IMG/VR virus record: IMGVR_UViG_3300018420_001673
Coordinates: 1 to 39,234 of that record
Direction: 5' to 3' (one strand)
DNA from: a virus
Lineage: Duplodnaviria; Caudoviricetes
Length of the DNA stretch: 39,234 nt
Part shown: in pieces, positions 5,741 to 37,648 of the stretch
Layout: each line of letters opens with the position of its first letter
Numbering within the stretch: position 1 is the stretch's first letter
Notes under the pieces: generated by a model
What the model was told of the DNA's origin: nothing
The model's database searches: none
What the model saw: the letters and a program-made list of their open reading frames with translations, nothing else
Position numbers and translations under genes: made by a program

Positions 5741-8700
5741 ATGCGTTCATACAATATACTACTGGCAGACGGCACTAGCGAGACAGTACAAGCCCCTGAA
5801 AATGCCACTAAGGAACAGCTAGCCGAAGCAATAAATAGGCAGCGAGATGTTTCTTTTAGGTACAGCACCTCTCGTAAAGATAGGGTAGCCGAACGCGAAG
5901 CTAAGCTGGATCAACTAAGAGCAGAACTATCTAAAGCTAGAGAAAGGTCTAGCGAAGCACAGAGGGGTAGCTTTTCTCGCGGCTTAGACATCGGTACTGA
6001 CCTTATAGCACAAGCTACTGGCTCTGGTTTAGAGGGTATAGGTAGCATCCTTGGGCTAGAAGGGCTTGAAGAATATGGCGCTGAAGTAGCCCTTGAGAAC
6101 GAGGCTGATATACAGCGTAAATCTCGTTATCAAACCAAGTTTGACGACATTGAAGGCGCAGGAGATTTCTTCTCCTATCTTGGCGGTGTTGCTGCTGAGA
6201 GCGCCCCTGCCACGGCTGCTGGCATTGCTGGCGGTATTGCCGCTGCCGCTGCCGCCCCTGTTTTAGGTGTAGGTGCTGTTGTTGCCGGTATTGCTGGTGC
6301 CACCCTTGCAAACTTACCGTTCTTCTACGGTATGAACCGCGAACGGCAAAAAGAAGCCATAGACCAAGGGTTTAGAACTGAGATAAGTGAAGGCGCTGCT
6401 TTCCTTACTGCACTGCCCCAAGCGCTGTTAGACGGTATTGTTGACCGCTTGTTAGTGGGCGGTGCTTCTAAGTTAGGTATTACAGAAAAAGCACTGACCG
6501 GCGGCGGTATATTTACTAGAAGCACGAAGGGCGCAGGCTTAGGCGCAGTCGTAGAGGCACCCACAGAGATAGGTCAACAGATACTGGAGCGTGCCCAAGC
6601 GGGTCTACCTTTAGATAATGAAGAAGCGCTTGCCGAATATAGAGAGGCAGGCATAGCAGGCGGCTTGTTGGGTGGTGCTATCAGAGGCACCACAAGCGCT
6701 GCTGGTATTGGTGTTGATACAACGCCAGCGCCAACTACCACGCCCACCCCTGACCCCGATGTAGGTGTAGAGGCTGCAGATGATACAGGCGGTATCGCTA
6801 GTCGTTTCTTAGACCCAGAGTATGTAAGTTCCTTGGAGCTTGAAGGTGCGGATAGGGCTGCTACACAGCTAGCTTTAGAAGAAATACTAGGTAGAGATCC
6901 TACAGCCGTAGAGCCTACAGCCGTAAGACCTGCGGAAACAGAACCTGCAGAACCTACTGTTGTAGAAACTGTAGAAGCAGAACCCACTGTTGCGGAGGCC
7001 ATAGAGCCTACAGAGGAAGAAATTAGCCGAAGGATGGCTGCTGTAACTGATGAAACACTAGCAGCTACCACCGAGACAGAAGCGGCACGCGAAGCTACTG
7101 AAACTGGCGGCGTTCAAGAAGCAGTAATAGAGGCTGCTCCCGAAGTAGAAACAGAAGCGCAGCCCGCACCAGAAAGACCTATAACTGCTGAAGATCTTAA
7201 AAATTTTGGTATTCGTAAAGGTTCAAAGGCAGCGGGGTTTGTAGGTCAAGACTTAAACAACGCAGAAGTAAGAAGTGATTTTAAGGCTGCTGTTGGTAAG
7301 TTGAAGAACAGCTTGGCAATACAAGACAACATAGCTAGGACTCTTGAAAATGAACGACAAGCCCAAGTTACGGAAGTTACAGAAGAGCCAAGTGGAGTCA
7401 GCGTTTCGGGTGATATACAAGGCGCACCAGAGTCAGAAAGAGACACCTATACCACCAGCGTTGTTGAGTCTGGACGAGGAGCAGTGGGAGATGTTGACGA
7501 TAGCGCTGGACGACCTGTTACTGGAACTGGAAGAAGCGACCCTGCACTAATCCCAGCAAGTAAAATAGAAATGCTTGAGGGTATGGGCTTTAAGATTAAC
7601 GGCAGGAAGGGTAAGAAAAAGAAGCAAGAGCCAAAGCCTCAACAGGTAGCTGGTGTAGAAGTACCCACAGTAACAGAACTACCTAACAACGAACTTGAAT
7701 TTAAGTTTGGCGACACAGGGCCGGTATTTAGAGGTAAGCAAAAAGAAGGTGTCATAGATATAGAAGGCGCACCAGAAATTACAGCGTTTTCTAAGAACGA
7801 AGCGGTAAGAAAGCTACAGGCAAAAGTAGCGGGCACTGGGTTAGAAGCACAAGCAGGTAGAGCCTTAGCAGGACAAACAGAACTACCCGCAGTGGAGACT
7901 GAAGAGGCCGTAACTCCTACAAAAGATGTAGTCGAAGGCGTATCAACCAAAAGAGAAGTAGCGCTATCTAAAGAAGATACAGGTGGAGAAGCCGTATTAA
8001 GCCGTAAAGAACTGATGCAAGAAGCTAGGGCTATGGGGCTGTCCACTGCAGAGGCTAGGGAATACACAGATGCAGTGTTAGCTGGTATAGAAGGGTCAAA
8101 CCTAGATGTTGGCGAACTATACCTACTGGGCAGGGGTGTAAAAGGTCTGGACGCACCGCTACCGAACAATGCCGTCACTGCATTACAGGCCGGTGACATA
8201 AAAAGCGCTTTGGAAGCTGTTGCAAAGAGCACATCTAACAAGAACATCCGACAGATTGCTAGAAAGCTAATACCTTTGGTGGGCACCACTAGGGTCAGGT
8301 TTGCGAGGTTACAAGAAAACTTACCGGAAAACGCTTCTGAGGTAGATAAGTTTCTGTCCAGAAGAATTAGTGAGTTAGTAGGGGGTGAACCTATATATGG
8401 GCAATACTACCCCAGTACGGAAAGCATACTTACACAACTACCCCCTGATGCCACTATAGAACAGACTAGAAGGCTATCACTGCTTGTTGACGAGGTAGAA
8501 AACACCGTAGTCTTAAACCAAGACACTACAGAAGGTATGTCTGTAGCTACGCTTCTACATGAAATGACGCACGCTGCCACAATAAACACACTGGCAAAAC
8601 CGGCACACCCAGTAACGGCGCAGTTACAAACCATATACGACAGCGTAAAAGAGCAGCTACAGGGGCTGTATGGTTCAGAAAGCCTAGAAGAGTTTGTAGC

Positions 8701-11700
8701 AGAAGCGTTTAGTAACCCTATGTTCCAGCAGAGGCTCGCTAGGATAAACATAAAAGGCGAGCAGATAAGTGCCTTTGACCGATTCAAGAACGCTATACGC
8801 AAGCTATTTAGGGTTCCTAAAAAGAAAGATACTAAGCCTGTATCTAAAGAAGTTAACGCTCTTATAGAACAGATATTAGCGCCTGCTCCACAATATAGAG
8901 GGTTGGGCACAATATCTAATAGCTCTTCGCCTAGAGAGGTGGCTGCTATAGGTGAGGCTTTGAAGAACCGCACTGCGGGCGCGTTTAGTAAGACGAGTAG
9001 AAAAGTCTTAGCAAACAGAATAAAAGGTATATTTTCTGGCCCCCAAAACCCTGCTTCTGTAACAGCCAAGAGGGTAGTAGGTGGATTCTTACCGAACAGT
9101 AGTATTGGAGATTGGGCGGATTCACTAGGGTTAGACGGTGCTACAGACGTACTTGAAGCTATAGAAAATCAACGTGGCGATCTTAGTAGGTCAGAGCAAG
9201 TCACACGAAGGAAACTGCTGCCCATACTGCAGTGGGGCAACAAAGCCACTAAAGAGATAAGAGACAGATTTAACGACATCGTATACATCAGCACCATAGA
9301 GGGAGTAGATCCGTCAAAGGATTTGTCTGCTTATACAGGTAAAAAGCTAACCATCTATAAAGAGCTTAGAAAAGAGTTTAATAAGTTAGGCCCAGATGGA
9401 CGAAGGGCGTACACCAACCTGCGTGACTTCTACAAGTATCAATACGACCAACTGTTAAAAGCGCTAGAGGGCAGGATAGACGAGCTAGAAGCACCTCAAG
9501 AAGTTAAAACTAATCTTAAGAACGAACTGCTCGGCCAACTATTACGGCAAGCAAAAGAAGATCCATACTTCCCTCTGACTCGTAAAGGCACGTATTTCTT
9601 AGCTGTTAAAGACCCCAAAGCACAGGGTAACTCTGCCGTGTTTTCGTTTGAGAACAATGGCGACAGGAACATGGCTATAGATGAGTTCACAGAGATGGGG
9701 ATGGACGTTGAGATCTTTGACCCTAATGACTCAACCATGTATACGGGGGACTCGGTGCCTCCAGCGTTTGTCGCTAACGTCCTGCGGACACTAGACGCGC
9801 AAGTCGGTGCATTAGATCCGAACCAGAAAATAGGGTACGAAGCAGCAAGAGAGCAGATAACTAAGTTATTTATACAATCGCTGCCAGAATCTTCTTTTGC
9901 GAAGGGGCTGCAGAAACGTAAGAAAACGGAAGGCTACGACAAAGATGCATTAGAAGCCGCTAGAACAAAAGGTTATGACCTAGCTAGACAGGCTTCACGC
10001 ATAAAGAACAGCGCTATAATTCAGTCCAAACTAACGTCGTTTTTAGAGAAAAGTAAAGGTGGGGACACAGAAGTAGTTAGAGAAATACGCGAACGAGCTA
10101 AGTTTGCGATGAACCCACCCAAAGACAACTTTGCAAAAAACTTAAACCGCATGGCGTTTTTGTGGACTATCGGTTTCAATGCCTCCTCTGCCTTGGTCAA
10201 CTTATCTCAAATACCACTCTTTGCTTACCCAATGCTCGCTGGTAAGTATGGTTATGCCAACACAAGCGCAGCTATAAAAGATGCGGGTAAGTTGTTTGTA
10301 GGTACACCCCTAAACCAAACACAAGAAACTTTGTTTGGCGGCACTCGTAACGCTAGATCAATAAGAGAAGCGCTGAAGGGCAGAGATAAACTTAAAAATG
10401 TTATGGAAGCTACGCAGGATAAAGCGCAGCCTTCATTGGAGAACTACTACACAGTTACAGAGTCTGACGGTCAACTTACATACACGGTGCGAGAAGACCT
10501 AGACCTTCCGCAAGAGATGAGGACAGAGCTTGAAAACTTGGTGCCTCTAGTTCGGTTAGCTGCTAGACGTGGGCAGTTAGGTTCTTCTTTTATAGCGGAA
10601 ACACTTAGCGTAGATACTTCTGGAAGAGACATAAGTAGAGCCGATTTTATAACTAATATGTCTGCCTTGATGTTCCACACCGCAGAAGTTATGAACCGCC
10701 AAACTACATTGGTAGCAGCGTACAAACTTGCTTTGGACAAGGCTACAAAAGGTAAAGATCTTACAGAATCTCAATTAAGAGAAGCAGAACAGAAAGCCGC
10801 TGCAGACGCAGTGTATGAGACTCAACAGATAAACGGTGGTGCTAACCTAGAAACTGGGCCAAGGTTTGCACGTTCTGGTATTGGTCGCGTGGCTCTCATG
10901 TATAAGAACTACGGCATCACCATGTATTACAAGATGCTGAAGACTGCATGGGAAGGTACAAAAGCAGCTTACGGTGGAGACACAGAGGCAGCTAAAGTGG
11001 CATTTAAGCAGTTGGCAGGGGTGCATATGTCCGCACTGTTGCTAGCAGGAGTGCAGGGATTACCGTTGTACGGCGCAGCCACGATGATATACGACATGTT
11101 GGTAGGTGATGAGTCAGAAGAAGACTTTGAGACGTTTGTACGGCGATCTTTAGATAACGAGATGTTATACAAGGGAGTTCTGTCAGAAGTAACTGGGCTG
11201 GATGTATCTAAGCGTGTTGCGTTAACTAACTTGCTGTTTGAAGCAGACCGATTTAACTCTAACCCATCACCCGAAGAGTCGTTTATGCACTTCTTTGGTG
11301 GCCCAGCGTGGAGTGTAGGCTCTAAGGCTTGGGAGAGTTTTGAAGATCTATGGCGCGGAGAAGATATGGAGCGAGCGTTTGAGGGTATGGCACCGGGAGC
11401 CGTGCGTAACGCCTACCGTGCTCTGCGCAGGTATCCCAGAGATGAAGGCATCCTCACTCGTAGAGGTGACCCCATGTACGACGATATAACCGGCGGACAG
11501 TTGTTCGCGCAGTTGCTTGGGTTCCCGCCTACGGAATATATGAACAACATGGAGGAGTCCTCTAAAGCCAAGCGTATGAATGACGCCGCTGCGAATAAGC
11601 GAAGAAGGTTGTTAAAGAGGTACTACGTAGCAATGCGGTTTGGCGATTTTATAGAGGCGAACAATATACGGCTAGAGATGGCTGAATTTAGTGGCTCTAG

Positions 11701-11851
11701 GGCAGTGCAACAAGATCCAAAACTAGCGATAACCCCAGAAACTATTGAGCGGTCTATGAAGGCTCATGCACGCACAACCACCAAGATGCACAATGGGGTG
11801 CTGTTATCCCCCGCAATGCGAGCGGCTGTAGAGGCTGAAGGGTTTTTCTAG
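5741..11851 (+). CDS. Large polyvalent/internal virion protein with zincin metallopeptidase (HEMTH...EEFVAE) and PLxRFG-like motif
   Basis: 2036 aa. HExxH at 8558-8572 with a downstream E..AE; YFPLTRKG near 9566-9589; N-terminal Gly/Ala hydrophobic helices; last gene of the virion operon. Confidence 0.8.
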   Translation: MRSYNILLADGTSETVQAPENATKEQLAEAINRQRDVSFRYSTSRKDRVAEREAKLDQLRAELSKARERSSEAQRGSFSRGLDIGTDLIAQATGSGLEGIGSILGLEGLEEYGAEVALENEADIQRKSRYQTKFDDIEGAGDFFSYLGGVAAESAPATAAGIAGGIAAAAAAPVLGVGAVVAGIAGATLANLPFFYGMNRERQKEAIDQGFRTEISEGAAFLTALPQALLDGIVDRLLVGGASKLGITEKALTGGGIFTRSTKGAGLGAVVEAPTEIGQQILERAQAGLPLDNEEALAEYREAGIAGGLLGGAIRGTTSAAGIGVDTTPAPTTTPTPDPDVGVEAADDTGGIASRFLDPEYVSSLELEGADRAATQLALEEILGRDPTAVEPTAVRPAETEPAEPTVVETVEAEPTVAEAIEPTEEEISRRMAAVTDETLAATTETEAAREATETGGVQEAVIEAAPEVETEAQPAPERPITAEDLKNFGIRKGSKAAGFVGQDLNNAEVRSDFKAAVGKLKNSLAIQDNIARTLENERQAQVTEVTEEPSGVSVSGDIQGAPESERDTYTTSVVESGRGAVGDVDDSAGRPVTGTGRSDPALIPASKIEMLEGMGFKINGRKGKKKKQEPKPQQVAGVEVPTVTELPNNELEFKFGDTGPVFRGKQKEGVIDIEGAPEITAFSKNEAVRKLQAKVAGTGLEAQAGRALAGQTELPAVETEEAVTPTKDVVEGVSTKREVALSKEDTGGEAVLSRKELMQEARAMGLSTAEAREYTDAVLAGIEGSNLDVGELYLLGRGVKGLDAPLPNNAVTALQAGDIKSALEAVAKSTSNKNIRQIARKLIPLVGTTRVRFARLQENLPENASEVDKFLSRRISELVGGEPIYGQYYPSTESILTQLPPDATIEQTRRLSLLVDEVENTVVLNQDTTEGMSVATLLHEMTHAATINTLAKPAHPVTAQLQTIYDSVKEQLQGLYGSESLEEFVAEAFSNPMFQQRLARINIKGEQISAFDRFKNAIRKLFRVPKKKDTKPVSKEVNALIEQILAPAPQYRGLGTISNSSSPREVAAIGEALKNRTAGAFSKTSRKVLANRIKGIFSGPQNPASVTAKRVVGGFLPNSSIGDWADSLGLDGATDVLEAIENQRGDLSRSEQVTRRKLLPILQWGNKATKEIRDRFNDIVYISTIEGVDPSKDLSAYTGKKLTIYKELRKEFNKLGPDGRRAYTNLRDFYKYQYDQLLKALEGRIDELEAPQEVKTNLKNELLGQLLRQAKEDPYFPLTRKGTYFLAVKDPKAQGNSAVFSFENNGDRNMAIDEFTEMGMDVEIFDPNDSTMYTGDSVPPAFVANVLRTLDAQVGALDPNQKIGYEAAREQITKLFIQSLPESSFAKGLQKRKKTEGYDKDALEAARTKGYDLARQASRIKNSAIIQSKLTSFLEKSKGGDTEVVREIRERAKFAMNPPKDNFAKNLNRMAFLWTIGFNASSALVNLSQIPLFAYPMLAGKYGYANTSAAIKDAGKLFVGTPLNQTQETLFGGTRNARSIREALKGRDKLKNVMEATQDKAQPSLENYYTVTESDGQLTYTVREDLDLPQEMRTELENLVPLVRLAARRGQLGSSFIAETLSVDTSGRDISRADFITNMSALMFHTAEVMNRQTTLVAAYKLALDKATKGKDLTESQLREAEQKAAADAVYETQQINGGANLETGPRFARSGIGRVALMYKNYGITMYYKMLKTAWEGTKAAYGGDTEAAKVAFKQLAGVHMSALLLAGVQGLPLYGAATMIYDMLVGDESEEDFETFVRRSLDNEMLYKGVLSEVTGLDVSKRVALTNLLFEADRFNSNPSPEESFMHFFGGPAWSVGSKAWESFEDLWRGEDMERAFEGMAPGAVRNAYRALRRYPRDEGILTRRGDPMYDDITGGQLFAQLLGFPPTEYMNNMEESSKAKRMNDAAANKRRRLLKRYYVAMRFGDFIEANNIRLEMAEFSGSRAVQQDPKLAITPETIERSMKAHARTTTKMHNGVLLSPAMRAAVEAEGFF
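7350..7550 (+). CDS. Possible overprinted 66-aa helical protein in the +1 frame of the polyvalent gene
   Basis: AGGA 9 nt upstream of ATG 7350. The product has amphipathic-helix patterning (LSLDEEQWEMLTIALDDLLLELEEATLH) while the host frame here is a disordered linker. Confidence 0.4.
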   Translation: MNDKPKLRKLQKSQVESAFRVIYKAHQSQKETPIPPALLSLDEEQWEMLTIALDDLLLELEEATLH

Positions 11852-17339: not shown

Positions 17340-17368
17340 ACTTTAATGGTAAGCAACTATCTAATCAA
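17340..17368 (-). promoter_or_regulatory. Candidate internal sigma70 promoter TTGATT-N17-TAAAGT
   Basis: Lies at the short intergenic gap upstream of the HTH/SSB/primase block. Confidence 0.45.
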
Positions 17369-18896
17369 GTATTTCCTTGTATAAATCTATTATCTTTGTG
17401 TGATCGTTGATTCTATTATCTAATAGTGAGTACACACGTTTCTCTGCGAAGGAGCCTTGCAACTGTACCACCGTACATTTGTGATCCTGCCCAGAGCGAT
17501 GCACGCGAGCATTAGCTTGCGCGTAGGTTTCTAACGAGCTTGTCGGCCCCCACCATACCACTGTATTCGCCGCAGTCAGTGTAACTCCGTGGGCTGCTGC
17601 AGCGGGTTGAATTACCAACACCTGTGGCGAGGCGCTGGTTTGAAATCGTTTGAATATGTCTGTGCGCTTAGCGGCTCCCACATCTCCTCTAATAATCTCA
17701 GTGGGTATACCGTCGTTTATAAGTTTATCCGCCAGTATGTCTATGACGTGCTTAAACGGCACGAATACCAAGACCTTCTTAGTTGATTCGTCTATCACTT
17801 CACGAAGAACTTTATAGCGATGTTTGATGTCAAACTCTAAAGAGTCACCGTCATCTGTGTACACTGCACCGCTTGAGATTTGCAGTAACTTATTCATGTT
17901 CACGGCGGCGTTGGCTGCGGTTATTTGCTCCCCAGCGGCCTGCATGACCATAGTATCTTTAAGTTGCTTGTAGTATTTCTTCTGCTGCCTAGTCATCTCA
18001 ACCGTGCGTTTGACGTACACCATGTCTGGTAGGTCAAGGCACTCTTCTTTTGTAAACCTAATCGCTGGCTGCAGTGCTTTGAATACGGTGTCTGTAGCGT
18101 TCTCCTTGGGCACCCACTTAAAGTTAGTGACCTTCTGCATCACCATGTCACGGAAAGAACTAAAGAATCTAGGTACAGCGCTAGGGTTTACTAGCTTTGC
18201 TAGCCCAAACGCATCGACGGGGCTTTGCGCTGCTGGCGTGCCCGTCATCATCCACAACCACATGTGCGGAGCTAACAACGCATTCAACGTCTTCCAACGT
18301 CTAGTCTGTGGGTTCTTATAGTGTGTAGCTTCGTCCACTATGATTAGATCGAAGCCCCCAGCGGCTATGGCATCAGCCACTATCTCAACACCGTCGTAAT
18401 TAATAATCACGAACTCGGCACCGCTTTCTATTATCTTTCGGCGCTTAGGTGCAGCACCGTAGGCTATGTCTGCACTTCTGTGCATGGCGAAGGTGAACAG
18501 ATCATCCATCCACGCTGACTCCATGATGGACAGGGGGCATATCACGAGTACACGCGAGACGTACCCTTTGCTCATCAAGTAGTCAGCGGCCCATATAGCA
18601 CTTGCTGTCTTGCCAGTGCCTTGCTCGTTAAAGCAGAACGCTCTTTTGTTCAAAGTGAAGAACTCAGAAGTAGTCCTCTGGTGCTTCATCGGTGCGTGCT
18701 TTCCCGTCCAATCGTATCGTGTACGTATCGGGGAAGGTACGTTTATATTTAAGTTCTTTAGAACGTGAGCTTCTTCCAGCCCCCAGTTCACAATTACTTT
18801 GTTGTCTTGAAGCTCTTTGCTCTTAGGTATAACGCTCGTAACTTTTTTAGGGTCACGCAACCTAAGCAACAAGGCTTTGTTATCCACAACCTTCAT
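17361..18896 (-). CDS. SNF2-family (SF2) helicase
   Basis: QGTGKT, DEATH, MTGTP and QANARVHRSGQ motifs; start moved to ATG 18896, which follows GGAGAAC. Confidence 0.92.
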   Translation of the reverse strand: MKVVDNKALLLRLRDPKKVTSVIPKSKELQDNKVIVNWGLEEAHVLKNLNINVPSPIRTRYDWTGKHAPMKHQRTTSEFFTLNKRAFCFNEQGTGKTASAIWAADYLMSKGYVSRVLVICPLSIMESAWMDDLFTFAMHRSADIAYGAAPKRRKIIESGAEFVIINYDGVEIVADAIAAGGFDLIIVDEATHYKNPQTRRWKTLNALLAPHMWLWMMTGTPAAQSPVDAFGLAKLVNPSAVPRFFSSFRDMVMQKVTNFKWVPKENATDTVFKALQPAIRFTKEECLDLPDMVYVKRTVEMTRQQKKYYKQLKDTMVMQAAGEQITAANAAVNMNKLLQISSGAVYTDDGDSLEFDIKHRYKVLREVIDESTKKVLVFVPFKHVIDILADKLINDGIPTEIIRGDVGAAKRTDIFKRFQTSASPQVLVIQPAAAAHGVTLTAANTVVWWGPTSSLETYAQANARVHRSGQDHKCTVVQLQGSFAEKRVYSLLDNRINDHTKIIDLYKEILD

Positions 18897-18906
18897 GCTG
18901 TTCTCC

Positions 18907-19005
18907 AAATGCCGCCTTTAGCACCCACGGACGGCGCGTGGTATCAACCCTTCTGATTCCGCAATGCGTGGACTTGCTTTCCAAGCGAATCAGAAGGACG
19001 TGCTA
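18907..19005 (-). ncRNA. Pseudoknotted RNA motif, copy A (helicase leader)
   Basis: UAGCAC/GUGCUA, an 11-bp stem CCUUCUGAUUC/GAAUCAGAAGG, CCACG/CGUGG, and loop GCCGUC pairing with downstream GGCGGC. Confidence 0.7.
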
Positions 19006-19272
19006 TCTCTTTTTACTGTGTCCGTTTCTACTACGGTTCTTGCTTCGGCTTTCTACCTTGTAGCCATCTTTGTTGGTACCACCTCTACTCAACATTTTGT
19101 TATGGCTAACGTCTTTGCCTTCGCGTTTATCTGCTTTGCCGTTCTTATTGGCATCGCGTCCTGTCTTATCCATTGCTCGGCGTGCGCGTTGTCGCTCCAT
19201 ACGATCCGCGTGCTCACCCCTTGCCACCTGCTGACGATACTCTTTTTTGTAATCTCGTTGTCGTCTACGCAT
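19003..19272 (-). CDS. Small basic HNH-endonuclease-like protein
   Basis: RDYKKEY...GKDVSH....SRGGTN...NRSRN; TGATG coupling at 19272. Confidence 0.65.
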   Translation of the reverse strand: MRRRQRDYKKEYRQQVARGEHADRMERQRARRAMDKTGRDANKNGKADKREGKDVSHNKMLSRGGTNKDGYKVESRSKNRSRNGHSKKR

Positions 19273-19943
19273 CAGTTCCTTCCGTTGTGTGGGCACTCTA
19301 AGACTTGGCACCACTGCTTACACAGTCCGCTAGGCTTTGGGTTCCACACATCATTGTCGAAAGCCGCTTGCATACTGTTGTAGTTACTCATCCATTTATC
19401 CCACAACGCTGTCTCATCCTCAAGCGCATAACGATCTTTTATAAGATCTTCGCTTACGACAAACAAAAGCCCAGCCCGTACAGTCTCTACTTCGGGGTAG
19501 TGCTTGAAGGTAGCCAAGGCCATAAGCTCTAGCTGCCCTTTGTCAGCATATCTTGCCGACTTACCTGTCTTGTAGTCAATGACCCAAGCCAACTTATCTT
19601 CTTCATTGAGGATCAACAAGTCTGCGATCCCTCTGAACCAAACGTCTCCATCGTAGAAGCTGCACGCTTCTAGGCTTTCAGTCAGCCCCATTTTGATCTC
19701 GCACAGCTTATCGCCCTTCTTGGCGTTCAGTGCGTCAAGCATACCCTGTGCATACTTAAAGCGTGGATCTAGCTCCCCACCGTCACGTATGTATATCTCT
19801 GCTGCTTTGTGAAACTCGTCGCCATACTTGATGGCATCGGTCATCTTAAACGGATACTTCTTTACAACTTTCTCGTAGTAAAACTGTTTCGGGCACTGCT
19901 GGAATGCCTTAATCCTACTAAACGACCACGGTGCAGCACTCAA
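19272..19943 (-). CDS. PD-(D/E)XK exonuclease (Cas4/RecB-like, 1+3 Cys Fe-S pattern)
   Basis: WSFSRI...CPKQ, GIADL, IDYKTGK, QLELMA and C-terminal CKQWC....C motifs. Confidence 0.88.
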   Translation of the reverse strand: MSAAPWSFSRIKAFQQCPKQFYYEKVVKKYPFKMTDAIKYGDEFHKAAEIYIRDGGELDPRFKYAQGMLDALNAKKGDKLCEIKMGLTESLEACSFYDGDVWFRGIADLLILNEEDKLAWVIDYKTGKSARYADKGQLELMALATFKHYPEVETVRAGLLFVVSEDLIKDRYALEDETALWDKWMSNYNSMQAAFDNDVWNPKPSGLCKQWCQVLECPHNGRN

Positions 19944-21776
19944 TTATTCACAGTCTCCGTATGTTTTAGCCACACCACTCTCGCAATCAAGTGGTAGCCC
20001 CTCTGCCCAATCTGGTACGAACCGCATACATTCTTCAATATACTGCTGTGCTTCGTTAACTTCTTCCTCTGGCACACATGCCACAATAGAGTCATGCACT
20101 GTCAGAACGGGTGGATACTTCTTATCTATAAGTAGCATCTGTTCTGAGATAATACAACGCGCTATCGCCTGACATGCGTTCTCCACAAACTTCCCACCGT
20201 ATATCTTGGTGCGGCCTCGTCTAGTCTTGTATGTAAACTCCAGCCCTTTCTCATTCTGTTCGCCCGTAAGATCTTCATACCGCATAACTAGACCTGATGG
20301 TAGCCGGACGCCTTGTAACGCAGCTATAGGCTCTATCACAGATTGCTCACCTATACTGACCGCTGAGTTCTTAGACAGTTCCTCTAGCATAACATTAGCA
20401 TCGCGCCATAGTTTATTGATTTTCCAGTTAGTTTCGCGGTAGATGTTTATGACCCTACGGCACTCATCCATAGGTAGCTCGACGCCGAAGTTCTTAAGCT
20501 GGTCTTGGAACCGTAAAGCCCCCATGCCATACCCAGCACCAAGTATCGTGGTCTTACCTACGAACCGCTGCTGTGGGGTTATGTCCTCCTCCCGCACATC
20601 GTAGATCCGCGAAGCCATCTTGACATACACATCTTGCTTGTTGCGGAACGCTTCGGTCAGGTCATCCTGCCCTGCGAACCATGCCAACACTCTCGCCTCT
20701 ATCTGCGACGAGTCACAGTCTATGAGCATGTAACCTTCGGGGGCCATGATGCTTTTCTTTAACATCTTACCGTCAGGCCCACGGCTGGGTAGGTTCTGTA
20801 TGTTGATCTTGTCTGATCCACCCCATCTACCCGTGTGTGCGGCGTAGTACCTCACTGGAACCGGCAGAGTTCCACGCTTCGCAATGTCTATGAAACGCTG
20901 CGTGCGTGTTTCTTCCAACGTACTTTTGTTCCCAAGACGCGCAGCTACTAAGGCTTGCACGTTTAGGCTGTCGTGCTCTGCTAATGCTTTGAACCCCTCG
21001 TCTGTCTTAGCAAACGCATAGGTTTCTTTACCCGTCGCTGGGCTTATCTTGGTGGGTGGTATGGCACCTTGCTCTTTAAGAAGTTCTGCAAACTTATCGT
21101 TACTCATCAACTGCTTCTTGTCAGTTATGTTTGCAGCTTCTAGTAACTCGTCCTTACGGTCACGTATACTGATTAGGTGTTGTTCCAACAGGCCAAGATC
21201 TAGCTCAAGACGGGCCTCAATAAACATACGCAGAGTGCAGTCTATGACCTTAAGTTCTTTCTTCGGGAACATAGATTCGTTCATCAATGCGAACAATTTG
21301 TATGTCAGTTCCACATCGTTGATGCAGTAGTCGCCATACTTATCTAGTTCCGACTCCGTAAAGTCCTCTCGTCGTTTGCCGAGCGCGTTAAGTACTTCGG
21401 TTCCCTTCTCGCCGACTCCATAGCGTTCTGATAGCGCTTTGAGGCTTGCACCAACCTCCACGCCATGTAAGCCACGCCCCATGCACATAGTATCAGCCCA
21501 AGCGCGAGGGCGAATACCAAATAGCCAAGACAATATAGCCCCATCAAACATGGTGTTGTGAGCCAATACCATGCTGTTCGCCCAATCGAAGTCATTGAAA
21601 TACTCTCTAAATTCTTCATGCGTGCCGCTGGCCCACTCTGTCGGCCCGTTGTTGACCTTCACAGATACACCGATGATCTCAAAGCGAGGGTCACGTATGT
21701 ATTCTTCTGTGGTCAGTTTCGACAGTGAGAAGTCTTTACTGTAGTACGTCTCAAAATCTACAGTTATAAGATCCAC
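19944..21776 (-). CDS. polA: Family A DNA polymerase with 3'-5' exonuclease domain
   Basis: DFETY, AHN..FD and YC.ND exo motifs; TGRW; motif A DSSQIEAR; motif B RFVGKTTILGAGYG; motif C TVHDS. Confidence 0.95.
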   Translation of the reverse strand: MDLITVDFETYYSKDFSLSKLTTEEYIRDPRFEIIGVSVKVNNGPTEWASGTHEEFREYFNDFDWANSMVLAHNTMFDGAILSWLFGIRPRAWADTMCMGRGLHGVEVGASLKALSERYGVGEKGTEVLNALGKRREDFTESELDKYGDYCINDVELTYKLFALMNESMFPKKELKVIDCTLRMFIEARLELDLGLLEQHLISIRDRKDELLEAANITDKKQLMSNDKFAELLKEQGAIPPTKISPATGKETYAFAKTDEGFKALAEHDSLNVQALVAARLGNKSTLEETRTQRFIDIAKRGTLPVPVRYYAAHTGRWGGSDKINIQNLPSRGPDGKMLKKSIMAPEGYMLIDCDSSQIEARVLAWFAGQDDLTEAFRNKQDVYVKMASRIYDVREEDITPQQRFVGKTTILGAGYGMGALRFQDQLKNFGVELPMDECRRVINIYRETNWKINKLWRDANVMLEELSKNSAVSIGEQSVIEPIAALQGVRLPSGLVMRYEDLTGEQNEKGLEFTYKTRRGRTKIYGGKFVENACQAIARCIISEQMLLIDKKYPPVLTVHDSIVACVPEEEVNEAQQYIEECMRFVPDWAEGLPLDCESGVAKTYGDCE

Positions 21777-22070
21777 TTACTCAACCCTCCAGTAACGTAC
21801 TGTATCCCTATCGTTACTTAATCGTGTGCTTAGCCTTATTCCCCTGTTGCGAGCCACTGCGTAAAAACGTTCACCTTCCTTAGAAAACAACTGATTTCCC
21901 CTTCGTTTTGCATCTACAGAAAACTCAATACTGTCACCAACTTCCATAACGTCTAACGCATCGTGAATATATTTAGTTTTGTGGTAACCCCTACTTTTCT
22001 CTGGAAACGGTATGCCTTTATCTATCTTCAACTTCTTACCAACTTCGGGGCGGTGCTGAATGGTAGCCAT
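21777..22070 (-). CDS. Small basic protein of the MEVGDS...WR type
   Basis: KIDKGIPFP...MEVGDSIEF...VRYWRVE. Confidence 0.75.
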   Translation of the reverse strand: MATIQHRPEVGKKLKIDKGIPFPEKSRGYHKTKYIHDALDVMEVGDSIEFSVDAKRRGNQLFSKEGERFYAVARNRGIRLSTRLSNDRDTVRYWRVE

Positions 22071-22071
22071 A

Positions 22072-22641
22072 TCAACCCCCCAGCCGCTTGATTTCAGCGT
22101 CTATATAGAAGCGGATCTTCTTGGCATCGCGTAGCTCATCACTGTGAGATGACTCGCCGTAACGGTACGCAGCGCGGAATATCTCACCGACCTGTGCGTT
22201 CATGTTCTTGTGCGAGATTAGGTCTTGCAGTTCTTTCGCGCCTTCGGGTAATTCGTAGTAAGACGCGGTGCTACCGTCGCTAACTTGTTTACAGGGAACA
22301 TTGTTGATTACCAACTGCTGTGTTGTAGTTCCCGGATGTGTTACCAATGGCGGTGTTTTGTGTTCCTGTGGGATGTAGTTCTTAGACTTAACGCGAGACG
22401 CAACGCTACTGAGCGTGGCTTCTGCCTCTGTACTGGTATCAGGTTCATCCAACGCGAGCGTGGTCTGCTCTGGCGCGTTGGGATCTGTCCGCTGCTCAAG
22501 CCATAGGTTGCGTGCGCTCCACATAGTTCCATAGGGGCGCTTAAATAACTTAACTAATGCAGATACTTGTGTGTCTGGGTTGCGGTCTAAATAGTTTATG
22601 ACCTCACTGCGTACTGACGGTTTATGCTTTCTCTTAGCCAT
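22072..22641 (-). CDS. Protein with C-terminal DUF3310/T7 gp1.7-like (putative nucleotide kinase) domain and N-terminal extension
   Basis: ASYY...GEIFRAAYRYG......RDAKKIRFYI resembles the G...KY..R.G.K....DL.KA..Y pattern; start after GGAGAATC. Confidence 0.55.
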   Translation of the reverse strand: MAKRKHKPSVRSEVINYLDRNPDTQVSALVKLFKRPYGTMWSARNLWLEQRTDPNAPEQTTLALDEPDTSTEAEATLSSVASRVKSKNYIPQEHKTPPLVTHPGTTTQQLVINNVPCKQVSDGSTASYYELPEGAKELQDLISHKNMNAQVGEIFRAAYRYGESSHSDELRDAKKIRFYIDAEIKRLGG

Positions 22642-22653
22642 TTGATTCTCCAA

Positions 22654-22938
22654 TCAAGTTAGTAATTCTGTAATGTTGTGCATATTCGCTTCATTCACCA
22701 CCAAAGCGATGCCATTACTCTCTGTAATATCTTTAAGATTCTTCTCCTGCAGTGCTGTGGGTTTGTTCTTCCCCGCCTTGCATTCAATCCCAAAGAACTT
22801 ACCCTTGTAACACCCAACGATGTCAGGCACACCGCTACGCCCGTAGCCACCTGTCGCTGGGTAAAAATAGTATGCTTTAATCTCGCGTAACTGCTGCGCT
22901 ACGACTTTTTTTACTTTTGCTTCCGGTGTCATCGCCAT
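22654..22938 (-). CDS. VRR-NUC nuclease (putative Holliday junction resolvase)
   Basis: TPEAKVK, GVPDIV, GIECKA and PTALQ motifs. Confidence 0.9.
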   Translation of the reverse strand: MAMTPEAKVKKVVAQQLREIKAYYFYPATGGYGRSGVPDIVGCYKGKFFGIECKAGKNKPTALQEKNLKDITESNGIALVVNEANMHNITELLT

Positions 22939-23050
22939 TGGTATGCTCCTTCAGCAATCGTTCAATACGAATTAGTGTGTCTAAGACTTCATTCTGTATG
23001 TCGAGCAGTCGCTCCACATCACTCTCTTCAATTTCAAATAAGATCTTCAT
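22877..23050 (-). CDS. Small hypothetical coiled-coil protein
   Basis: ATGA coupling with the upstream stop at 23047-23050; MKILFEIEESDVERLL. Confidence 0.6.
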   Translation of the reverse strand: MKILFEIEESDVERLLDIQNEVLDTLIRIERLLKEHTNGDDTGSKSKKSRSAAVTRD

Positions 23051-23268
23051 AAGGTACGCCACAGCCCCCACACGTCATCTTTCAATTGGCGCTGTGCTGT
23101 GCCATATCCCCTATCACGCATGTGTTTTCGGCACGCATTAAGTTCTCTAAGATCACTAAACTCTACGCTGTCACCCACTTCCATCTTGGTAACAAGTTCT
23201 GCCCACTTACTCCAACGCCGTTCCTTGGGTTCGGGAAGCAGTAAGTTCTTATTGATTTTGTATTCCAT
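23047..23268 (-). CDS. Small protein of the MEVGDS...WR type
   Basis: GAGG RBS before ATG 23268; KINKNLLLP...MEVGDSVEF...GLWRTL. Confidence 0.75.
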   Translation of the reverse strand: MEYKINKNLLLPEPKERRWSKWAELVTKMEVGDSVEFSDLRELNACRKHMRDRGYGTAQRQLKDDVWGLWRTL

Positions 23269-23290
23269 ACAGCCTCGTAAAACTGGTATC

Positions 23291-23317
23291 AAATCTAGTC
23301 CTGTCCAGACTAGATTT
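23291..23317. promoter_or_regulatory. Palindrome AAATCTAGTC-N7-GACTAGATTT (candidate operator, copy 1)
   Basis: Perfect 10-bp arms; the core recurs at 31416-31436. Confidence 0.6.
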
Positions 23318-23320
23318 TGA

Positions 23321-23367
23321 AAATCCCGCCTTCGACCACACGGACGGGAACGTGTCAATCAGGGTCG
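23321..23367 (-). ncRNA. Pseudoknotted RNA motif, copy B
   Basis: CGACC/GGUCG, ACACG/CGUGU, and loop CCCGUC pairing with GGCGGG; same topology as copy A. Confidence 0.65.
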
Positions 23368-23536
23368 GAGAACCCCTTAGTCTATTCGTATTAGTTGATG
23401 TGATTGTCCGTATGAAACCCCATAATGAGAAGGGCGTGCGGCGGCACTTCATCACATCTATTCTTTATCCCCGTAGTAAGGAGATGGAACAGTCGGACGC
23501 TAATACCCACCCGACAGCTATATCCGCACTCAACAT
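23364..23536 (-). ncRNA. manA-like structured RNA
   Basis: Seen: GUCGG/CCGAC hairpin whose loop GUAUUAG pairs with distal CUAAUAC, a GAUGUGAU/AUCACAUC stem, and closing GUUGAG/CUCCGAC. The segments GAAGUGCCGCCGCAC, AUACGGACA and CUAAGGGGUUCUC match my recollection of manA RNAs; not verified by search. Confidence 0.65.
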
Positions 23537-37084: not shown

Positions 37085-37278
37085 TGGCGAAAACCGTCTT
37101 AGACGTGCTTAAAGAAAAAATCGAAGGCGATAAGTCTTCAGCAATAGAATTTCTTACTGCAGGGGGAGCTAAAGACTTCGCCATGTATAAGGAAACCACA
37201 GGTTTGGTTCGGGGTCTCGAAACCTGTTTGCAATATATAGAAGACCTCTCGCGCAATTTGGAGTACGAAGATGAGTGA
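37084..37278 (+). CDS. Small conserved head-region protein
   Basis: AAGGAG RBS, coupled to the portal gene; DFAMYK...G.VRGL. Confidence 0.75.
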   Translation: MAKTVLDVLKEKIEGDKSSAIEFLTAGGAKDFAMYKETTGLVRGLETCLQYIEDLSRNLEYEDE

Positions 37279-37648
37279 TGTTGCACAGGCAACCGTTACT
37301 GAAGAAGAGTTTGAAGCACAATTACCTACGCCTGTGGGCTATAGGATATTGATTGCTATGCCACACGTCGAAGAGACCTTTGATGGCAGTGAACTACTTA
37401 AGTCTGTTACCACAAAGAACCACGAACAAGTCATGTCGATTATCGGGCTTGTGTTAGATATGGGCGACCAAGCCTACTCTGACGCAGACCGATTCCCAGA
37501 TGGCCCGTGGTGTAAGCAAGGGGACTACGTGATGTTCCGTGCTAATACGGGTACTAGGTTTTCAATAGATGGCAATGAGTATCGTCTAATGAATGATGAT
37601 TCTATTGAAGCTGTTGTACCAGATCCTCGTGGTATTCAAAGAGTTTAA
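37271..37648 (+). CDS. groES: GroES-like co-chaperonin
   Basis: P.GYRILI, G.V..MG, KQGDYVMF....G and YRLMNDDSI.AVV match the Cpn10 pattern. Confidence 0.82.
   Translation: MSDVAQATVTEEEFEAQLPTPVGYRILIAMPHVEETFDGSELLKSVTTKNHEQVMSIIGLVLDMGDQAYSDADRFPDGPWCKQGDYVMFRANTGTRFSIDGNEYRLMNDDSIEAVVPDPRGIQRV

Follow-up and report, generated by a model that had tools for sequence, protein, structure and literature searches.

The 39,234-nt stretch of DNA analyzed here, hereafter called the window (IMG/VR record IMGVR_UViG_3300018420_001673, positions 1 to 39,234), represents part of the genome of an uncultured, podovirus-like phage and has a GC content of 48.5%. Its minus strand, which encodes primase, single-stranded DNA-binding protein, SNF2 helicase, exonuclease, and polymerase, carries two copies (A and B) of a pseudoknot RNA. 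Both copies belong to a real, uncatalogued phage RNA family that is larger and stranger than was seen in a preliminary description of the two copies. The members of the family, termed units, have a common fold on a fixed strand, occur in tandem arrays, swap one hairpin arm, are enriched in complements of Shine-Dalgarno (SD) sequences and start codons (anti-SD and anti-start) in this arm, and have no long complement in their own genome. We consider it somewhat probable (about 0.55) that the units are processed antisense RNAs similar to the phage RNA C4, with the arm aimed at translation starts, most likely those of host mRNAs.

The family is present in approximately 290 IMG/VR stretches from phage lineages with few genes in common. 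Three pattern scans of IMG/VR yielded at least 119, at least 120, and 62 stretches, respectively, and the first two were estimated to correspond to about 160 and 230 in all. A structure-led scan of both strands of 5.2 Mb of overlapping loci (denoted by L numbers) gave 490 matches, of which 238 were distinct and 211 had the outer helix P1. Among the P1-bearing matches, 185 had a loop with no more than two mismatches from one of three loop types, and 182 units were retained after L081, L096, and L381 were dropped as chance matches. Read from 5′ to 3′, a unit opens with P1, a helix of about 5 bp that encloses a hairpin arm, a short linker, and P3 (4–5 bp), whose loop has 7 or 8 nt. The 3′ strand of P1 is followed by an A-rich linker, about 3 nt long, and by a tail strand that forms a pseudoknot of 6–7 bp with the P3 loop. 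The arm was 18–62 nt long in 162 of 165 well-parsed units.

The fold is supported by covariation. In the 99 distinct pattern matches whose outer P3 had been left free by the search, the outer P3 pairs were held in 97, 98, and 93 cases, compared with shuffle means of 59, 71, and 64, respectively, and a P1 partner was present at the expected distance in 60, compared with 26 in shuffles. Over four paired positions, these matches contained 69 G-U and only one A-C, which fixes the strand of the family and excludes the opposite-strand reading with GGA loops of the CsrA type. Two-sided changes were found in 13 of 16 pairs of alignment A1 (65 short-arm units, MAFFT), a number equalled in none of 500 shuffles, and pairing fell to 32–51% in slid controls, although the units of A1 were picked by descriptor and are biased towards pairing. 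Pseudoknots with full compensation exist among the units, and four pairs of the pseudoknot had sequence identities of 96–99%. Unpaired bases were poorly conserved (72% for the 5′ bases of the loop and 53–93% for the linker). In variants observed at L048:560-640, L058, and L065, the loop has 10 nt and the pseudoknot 8 bp, with compensation.

Both sequences quoted in the preliminary description lie on the minus strand of the window where it had placed them. A descriptor of the structure alone, built on the topology that it proposed, found exactly these two sites in the window, compared with a mean of 0.125 and a maximum of one in 40 Markov shuffles. The P3 helix and the pseudoknot of both copies showed covariation in relatives. 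Copy A starts, as described, on the UAG stop codon of the open reading frame (ORF) at 19003-19314 and ends at 18907, next to the helicase GGAG at 18906-18903. Copy B, which had been drawn from 23367 with CGACC/GGUCG as P1, has to be redrawn. The family P1 is formed by GACUA (23382-23378) and UGGUC (23338-23334), the true start is 23382, and CGACC makes up the 3′ strand of the hairpin arm. The nearest relative, L003, retains this P1 register and has no CGACC at that place, and the family fold of copy B had an energy of −12.8 kcal/mol, compared with −11.1 kcal/mol for the earlier fold (pseudoknot unscored). Because GACUA/UGGUC encloses a hairpin with the loop CUCC, both copies are three-way junctions. 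Unit B scored 69.8 bits with model R1, of whose training set it was itself a part, and the folding z-scores, which were computed for the single strand without the pseudoknot and are weak, were 0.30 for unit B and −2.08 for unit A. Two details regarded as common features did not extend to the family: the junction linker given as UGAU varies freely among units, and the first base of the tail given as AUUU was A in 93 of 182 units. The A directly before the pseudoknot strand was retained in 169 of 182.

Rfam 15, the family database searched, gave no match for the window or for 18 member loci. At E values up to 10, neither copy matched any family, and the sole other result was an unrelated 18-nt match inside the helicase gene. 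Covarying homologs, for which the preliminary description had suggested a search of phage databases, were found across many uncultured phages. It had matched the motif to no riboswitch or ribozyme core. The units lack the strongly conserved unpaired core and the coherent set of downstream genes that mark riboswitch aptamers; the structural features of ribozymes of the hepatitis delta virus (HDV) type are treated below. When the core was compared with cultured phages by blastn, the 32 matches obtained were partial and attributable to chance, and none reached 80% coverage. No match was found in four supplementary files of a catalog of candidate viral RNAs (PMC10690425), elsewhere in which the motif may stand undescribed.

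Read in reverse, many arms resemble gene starts. Anti-SD was present in 44 of the 70 non-redundant arms, and 22 had an anti-start codon with an anti-SD 3–9 nt after it. Dinucleotide shuffles gave 27.3 and 4.8, respectively, and neither count was equalled in 300 shuffles. The shuffled background of about 27 is explained by the purine/pyrimidine asymmetry of the arm stem, which raises it. The excess of anti-SD and anti-start persisted in the 3′ half of the arm alone, whereas sense SD sequences were at background level (11 versus 11.8 in shuffles). The loops of the arms were rich in C and U (381 of 530 bases). When 142 arms were grouped into 21 families, the values for anti-SD and for anti-start with anti-SD were 12.5 versus 7.8 and 5.05 versus 1.4, respectively, and random same-strand windows gave 2.6 and 0.9 in this family-lumped test.

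Arms turn over fast and are swapped between near-identical phages. In L003, whose helicase is 98.6% identical to that of the window, the arm at site A is shorter, and site B contains two unrelated arms followed by a different downstream gene. An arm class with the pattern CAUCAC..CCUCC, represented by 23 units, was located beside nine upstream and seven downstream gene families, indicating that the arm is retained independently of its neighbor. The 143 non-redundant arrays comprised 95 single, 34 double, 13 triple, and one quadruple arrays (48 tandem arrays of 2–4 units), and the strict descriptor undercounts the units per array. In the spacers between tandem units, 226 of 283 bases were U or A.

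In the mechanism that we propose, RNase E or RNase P of the host would cut each unit from a longer transcript within the U/A-rich spacers, and P1 and the pseudoknot would shield its ends. The arm would then pair in trans with an mRNA, probably of the host, over its ribosome-binding site and start codon, and block its translation. Multiple arms in an array could silence multiple genes simultaneously, and recombination between identical scaffolds could retarget the arms. The 18 records compared represent several lineages with few common genes. Among ORFs of at least 80 aa, no cluster occurred in all 18 (the best occurred in 14); thus, no dedicated phage effector is evident. A more far-reaching version of this mechanism, which we put forward tentatively, is a programmable and multiplexed RNA silencing system of lytic phages, in which swappable guides against host translation starts (e.g., of defense or metabolic genes) would act without phage proteins, be traded between unrelated lineages, and reside in islands with other new RNAs, the 140-nt companion RNA described below being perhaps a ribozyme or a processing factor.

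C4 controls the antirepressor of its own phage. C4 of phages P1 and P7 (RF01695; PMC5320573, PMC2864571) is, like the units, a phage-borne three-stem RNA of 60–80 nt whose scaffold is conserved and whose loop varies. It is described in PMC5320573 as being released by RNase P, occluding ribosome-binding sites with its loops, and deriving its specificity from one loop, so that processing from a longer transcript and occlusion of the ribosome-binding site are common to C4 and the mechanism inferred for the units. The units differ in that they do not match the RF01695 model, add the loop-to-tail pseudoknot, form arrays of different arms, and lack a complementary site in their own phage genome, where the best arm site exceeded those of all 16 other genomes in none of 23 units (seeds shorter than about 9 nt would escape this comparison). 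The units would therefore work like C4 if the model holds, yet they are not members of the C4 family. STAXI, as described in PMC2864571, consists of repeated pseudoknots (two or three) near DNA-handling genes; of the arrays studied here, 48 of 143 were tandem, and 29 had the helicase directly downstream. In contrast, the units have no Rfam match and no UUCG tetraloops and are three-way junctions with a variable arm, 95 of the 143 arrays being single.

Several observations weigh against the antisense reading. Owing to kinship among the arms, the counts given above are not independent and are inflated, one family accounting for 101 of 142 arms. Anti-SD was absent from 26 of 70 arms and sits partly in the arm stem, and copy A of the window has no exposed anti-SD in its arm loops. 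No repeated arm target was found among 16,107 phage gene starts, among 120 viral matches to one arm complement, or among 119 of approximately 850 metagenome matches to another arm complement. Even sampling of the two classes provided 401 genomes each of Gammaproteobacteria and Alphaproteobacteria, in which no target was found; the tally of 27 matching genomes in the bacterial search includes G329, G174, and G341, which were left out of the closer comparison. Two further observations also fit a role in cis: an SD-led ORF was located within 300 nt downstream in 122 of 143 arrays, and the position in front of the helicase is fixed in close relatives, as the unit was present there in all 25 relatives with at least 79.7% identity and in none of 45 with at most 78% (10 loci were too short).

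Among 117 non-motif metagenome matches, 59 were plausible starts of mostly unrelated genes, and the mean best match of the arms to the companion RNA was 7.4, compared with 7.8 for shuffled sequences. The nearest known proteins are distant (41% identity for the helicase, 35% for the polymerase, and 45–46% for the terminase, to phages of the Pelagibacter phage HTVC023P type), and hence no host can be named; for this reason, the searches can test a host target only weakly. The host is proposed as the target by exclusion. A search of prokaryote genomes gave 57 pattern matches, which is about chance level, and true units were present only in L207 (contig C93 of G033). This 31.8-kb contig with 49% GC contains two true units and up to 10 genes in common with the phages; it is read as a phage contig, probably misbinned in a Sphingobacteriales bin, and not as evidence for a host. 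The pattern matches in Paraburkholderia were located within a protein-coding gene and were rejected.

The preliminary description had proposed a cis-acting element that coordinates replication genes. A leader that tunes translation of the next gene, often the helicase, through a protein bound to its scaffold or by shielding the mRNA 5′ end would account for the conserved position in close helicase relatives and for the pseudoknot of copy A, which ends 14 nt ahead of the helicase ATG. The frequent SD-led ORFs downstream also fit, as does the orientation of the units relative to the flanking ORFs, which in a crude test was on the same strand in 102 of 143 arrays, opposite in 23, and tied in 18. 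The commonest neighbors were an HNH-like ORF upstream (39 arrays) and the helicase directly downstream (29 arrays), besides dozens of other contexts. However, the arms paired with their own downstream tails no better than with shuffled tails (−7.83 versus −7.71 kcal/mol; range, −7.92 to −7.48; 165 units), one arm class precedes unrelated genes, and units inside arrays or in front of other structured RNAs have no adjacent gene. Copy B itself precedes a 73-aa ORF without a family match, and a leader leaves the distinct, conserved, and exchanged arms unexplained. The conserved position before the helicase is the one support for a coordination of replication genes, and we regard a cis-acting leader as unlikely.

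A decoy, in which the units mimic the 3′ tail of 16S rRNA or C/U-rich host RNAs and titrate a ribonuclease toxin or an RNA-binding defense protein, appears still more doubtful. This model follows the mimicry by type III antitoxins of the ToxI type, which are near-identical H-type pseudoknot repeats in tandem upstream of a toxin gene. ToxI and phage pseudo-ToxI are, like the units, tandem pseudoknot RNAs with A/U-rich spacers; the highly identical paired positions of the pseudoknot, the resemblance of some arms (AUCAC..CCUCC) to the 16S tail, and the failure to find a base-pairing target are also consistent with a decoy. Such a model predicts identical repeats, yet the arms differ within arrays, the topology is a three-way junction rather than a simple H-type knot, and neither a common neighboring toxin nor an Rfam match was found. 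In addition, the spacing from CAU to anti-SD varies as in gene starts, being 0–11 nt in the 13 matches listed, seven of which were at 5–8 nt.

An antisense role in superinfection exclusion, with rival phages as targets, or in pairing by short seeds with late genes of the phage itself is improbable. C4 provides a precedent in immunity (PMC5320573), the loop region of unit B complements GGAGAAC of its own helicase ribosome-binding site, and the arm of L163 scored 42 of a nominal 43 against the gene start of another phage, which is one case among many comparisons. However, the own genome was best in none of the 23 units mentioned above, and gene starts of the own locus exceeded the random mean in only 26 of 64 cases and the best of eight random sets in five of 64, one of which was a self-match. 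No viral target recurs, although seeds shorter than about 9 nt escape such tests.

Least probable of all is a self-cleaving ribozyme or nuclease-blocking knot that merely punctuates or stabilizes the transcript: HDV-like and theta ribozymes and the class 1 exonuclease-resistant RNAs (xrRNAs) of flaviviruses have the same order of P1, loop-bearing helix, P1 3′ strand, and loop-downstream pairing, and P1 begins mostly with G after UA or UU (96 of 144), but the units lack P4, J4/2 with its catalytic C, and P2, the helix that closes the nested double pseudoknot of the HDV fold (P2 partner in 19 of 165 versus 18.7 in shuffles), none of 165 loops matches the 7-nt HDV-like L3 consensus UYCHCGY, the pairing of the 5′ leader with junction bases that characterizes class 1 xrRNAs is at chance (48 versus 47) with a P3-P1 junction of 0–1 nt, unpaired bases are poorly conserved, and the arms remain unexplained.

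The number of phage small RNAs known is low, and titles and abstract openings retrieved in a literature search described none that consists of tandem cassettes in which an exchangeable arm complementary to ribosome-binding sites is joined to a constant scaffold. If the arms are guides, their sequences would reveal the host genes that the phages must silence and would aid host assignment for uncultured phages, and the scaffold would offer a compact, nuclease-protected frame for synthetic small RNAs. Whatever the mechanism, the existence of two new RNA families with good covariation in widespread uncultured phages is established, and both can be tested in vitro.

The second of these families is represented in the window by a companion RNA of about 140 nt, located 5 nt on the 5′ side of unit B. 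It comprises an invariant hairpin, an A-rich linker, and a long stem around an invariant AUGAAG; the hairpin loop pairs with the 3′ end of the RNA in a pseudoknot of 7 bp. A scan identified the companion RNA in 51 stretches (L742-L792), and a unit adjoined it in 16 of these 51 loci. The 7-bp complement between loop and 3′ end was perfect in 31 of 33 distinct sequences, including that of the window. In 22 aligned copies, 99.3% of cells were paired and 13 of 27 pairs covaried; about 30 positions were invariant, partly because the scan pattern had fixed them. Rfam detected nothing but one tRNA in 10 companion loci. The companion RNA is a candidate ribozyme or ligand-binding RNA. Its length is about 140–160 nt, a YUCC stretch follows its first hairpin, and its 5′ end likely takes part in a further pairing.

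Other RNAs were observed in the same islands. A third RNA with three stems and a conserved CCGGAUGC linker was located at approximately L057:5510-5600, L316:10245-10335, and L748:2690-2780; it comes after units or the companion RNA, and no Rfam match was found in the loci holding it. At L050:6545-6600, L259, L120, and L585, a conserved bulged hairpin with a U-tract separates arrays from the gene that follows, which is the helicase or another gene. The third RNA and the hairpin recur in clusters of companion RNAs and units in variable order. Such strings of RNAs with U/A-rich spacers would be more in keeping with a polycistronic precursor than with the leader of a gene. At L745:2550-2619 on the minus strand, a tRNA-like gene is located directly before a companion RNA and a unit; its anticodon loop is shortened, and it matched the Rfam tRNA family with 50.9 bits but was not detected by ARAGORN.

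The features of the window around the two copies are listed in Table 1.

Table 1. Coordinates of the two units, the companion RNA, and adjacent features in the window.
Feature	Position	Strand	Details
SNF2-family helicase gene, downstream of unit A	17361..18896	-	likely start ATG 18896, SD 18906-18903
Unit A	18907..19005	-	P1 19005-19000/18924-18919
Unit A pseudoknot strand	18916-18911	-	
Unit A P3	18941-18937/18929-18925	-	7-nt loop 18936-18930
Unit A long arm	18999-18942	-	shorter and different in relative L003
103-aa ORF upstream of unit A	19003..19314	-	phrog_4590; stop codon opens unit A P1
73-aa ORF downstream of unit B	23047..23268	-	no family match; different gene in L003
Hairpin directly 3′ of unit B	23289..23320	-	z −2.77
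Unit B	23321..23384	-	P1 23382-23378/23338-23334
Unit B pseudoknot strand, after linker GAA	23330-23324	-	
Unit B P3	23354-23351/23342-23339	-	8-nt loop 23350-23343
Unit B hairpin arm	23376-23361	-	loop CUCC (anti-GGAG) 23370-23367
Companion RNA, about 140 nt	23388..23529	-	5 nt 5′ of unit B; no Rfam match

The 103-aa ORF upstream of unit A appears HNH-like by reading of its sequence, which has no Pfam match. In the hairpin directly 3′ of unit B, the loop is changed and the stem is retained in the relatives L003 and L585. No minus-strand promoter was found near copy B. The units were not accepted as terminators, as four or more consecutive U followed only 64 of 182 units and no terminator was called at copy B. 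Neither the window nor any of 37 loci contained a tRNA according to ARAGORN. Four RNA runs contain parts of the region as contigs, which are uninformative on ends or levels. On the plus strand, the window encodes a 2036-aa protein with DarB-like antirestriction matches (5741-11851) and a GroES-like gene (37271-37648).

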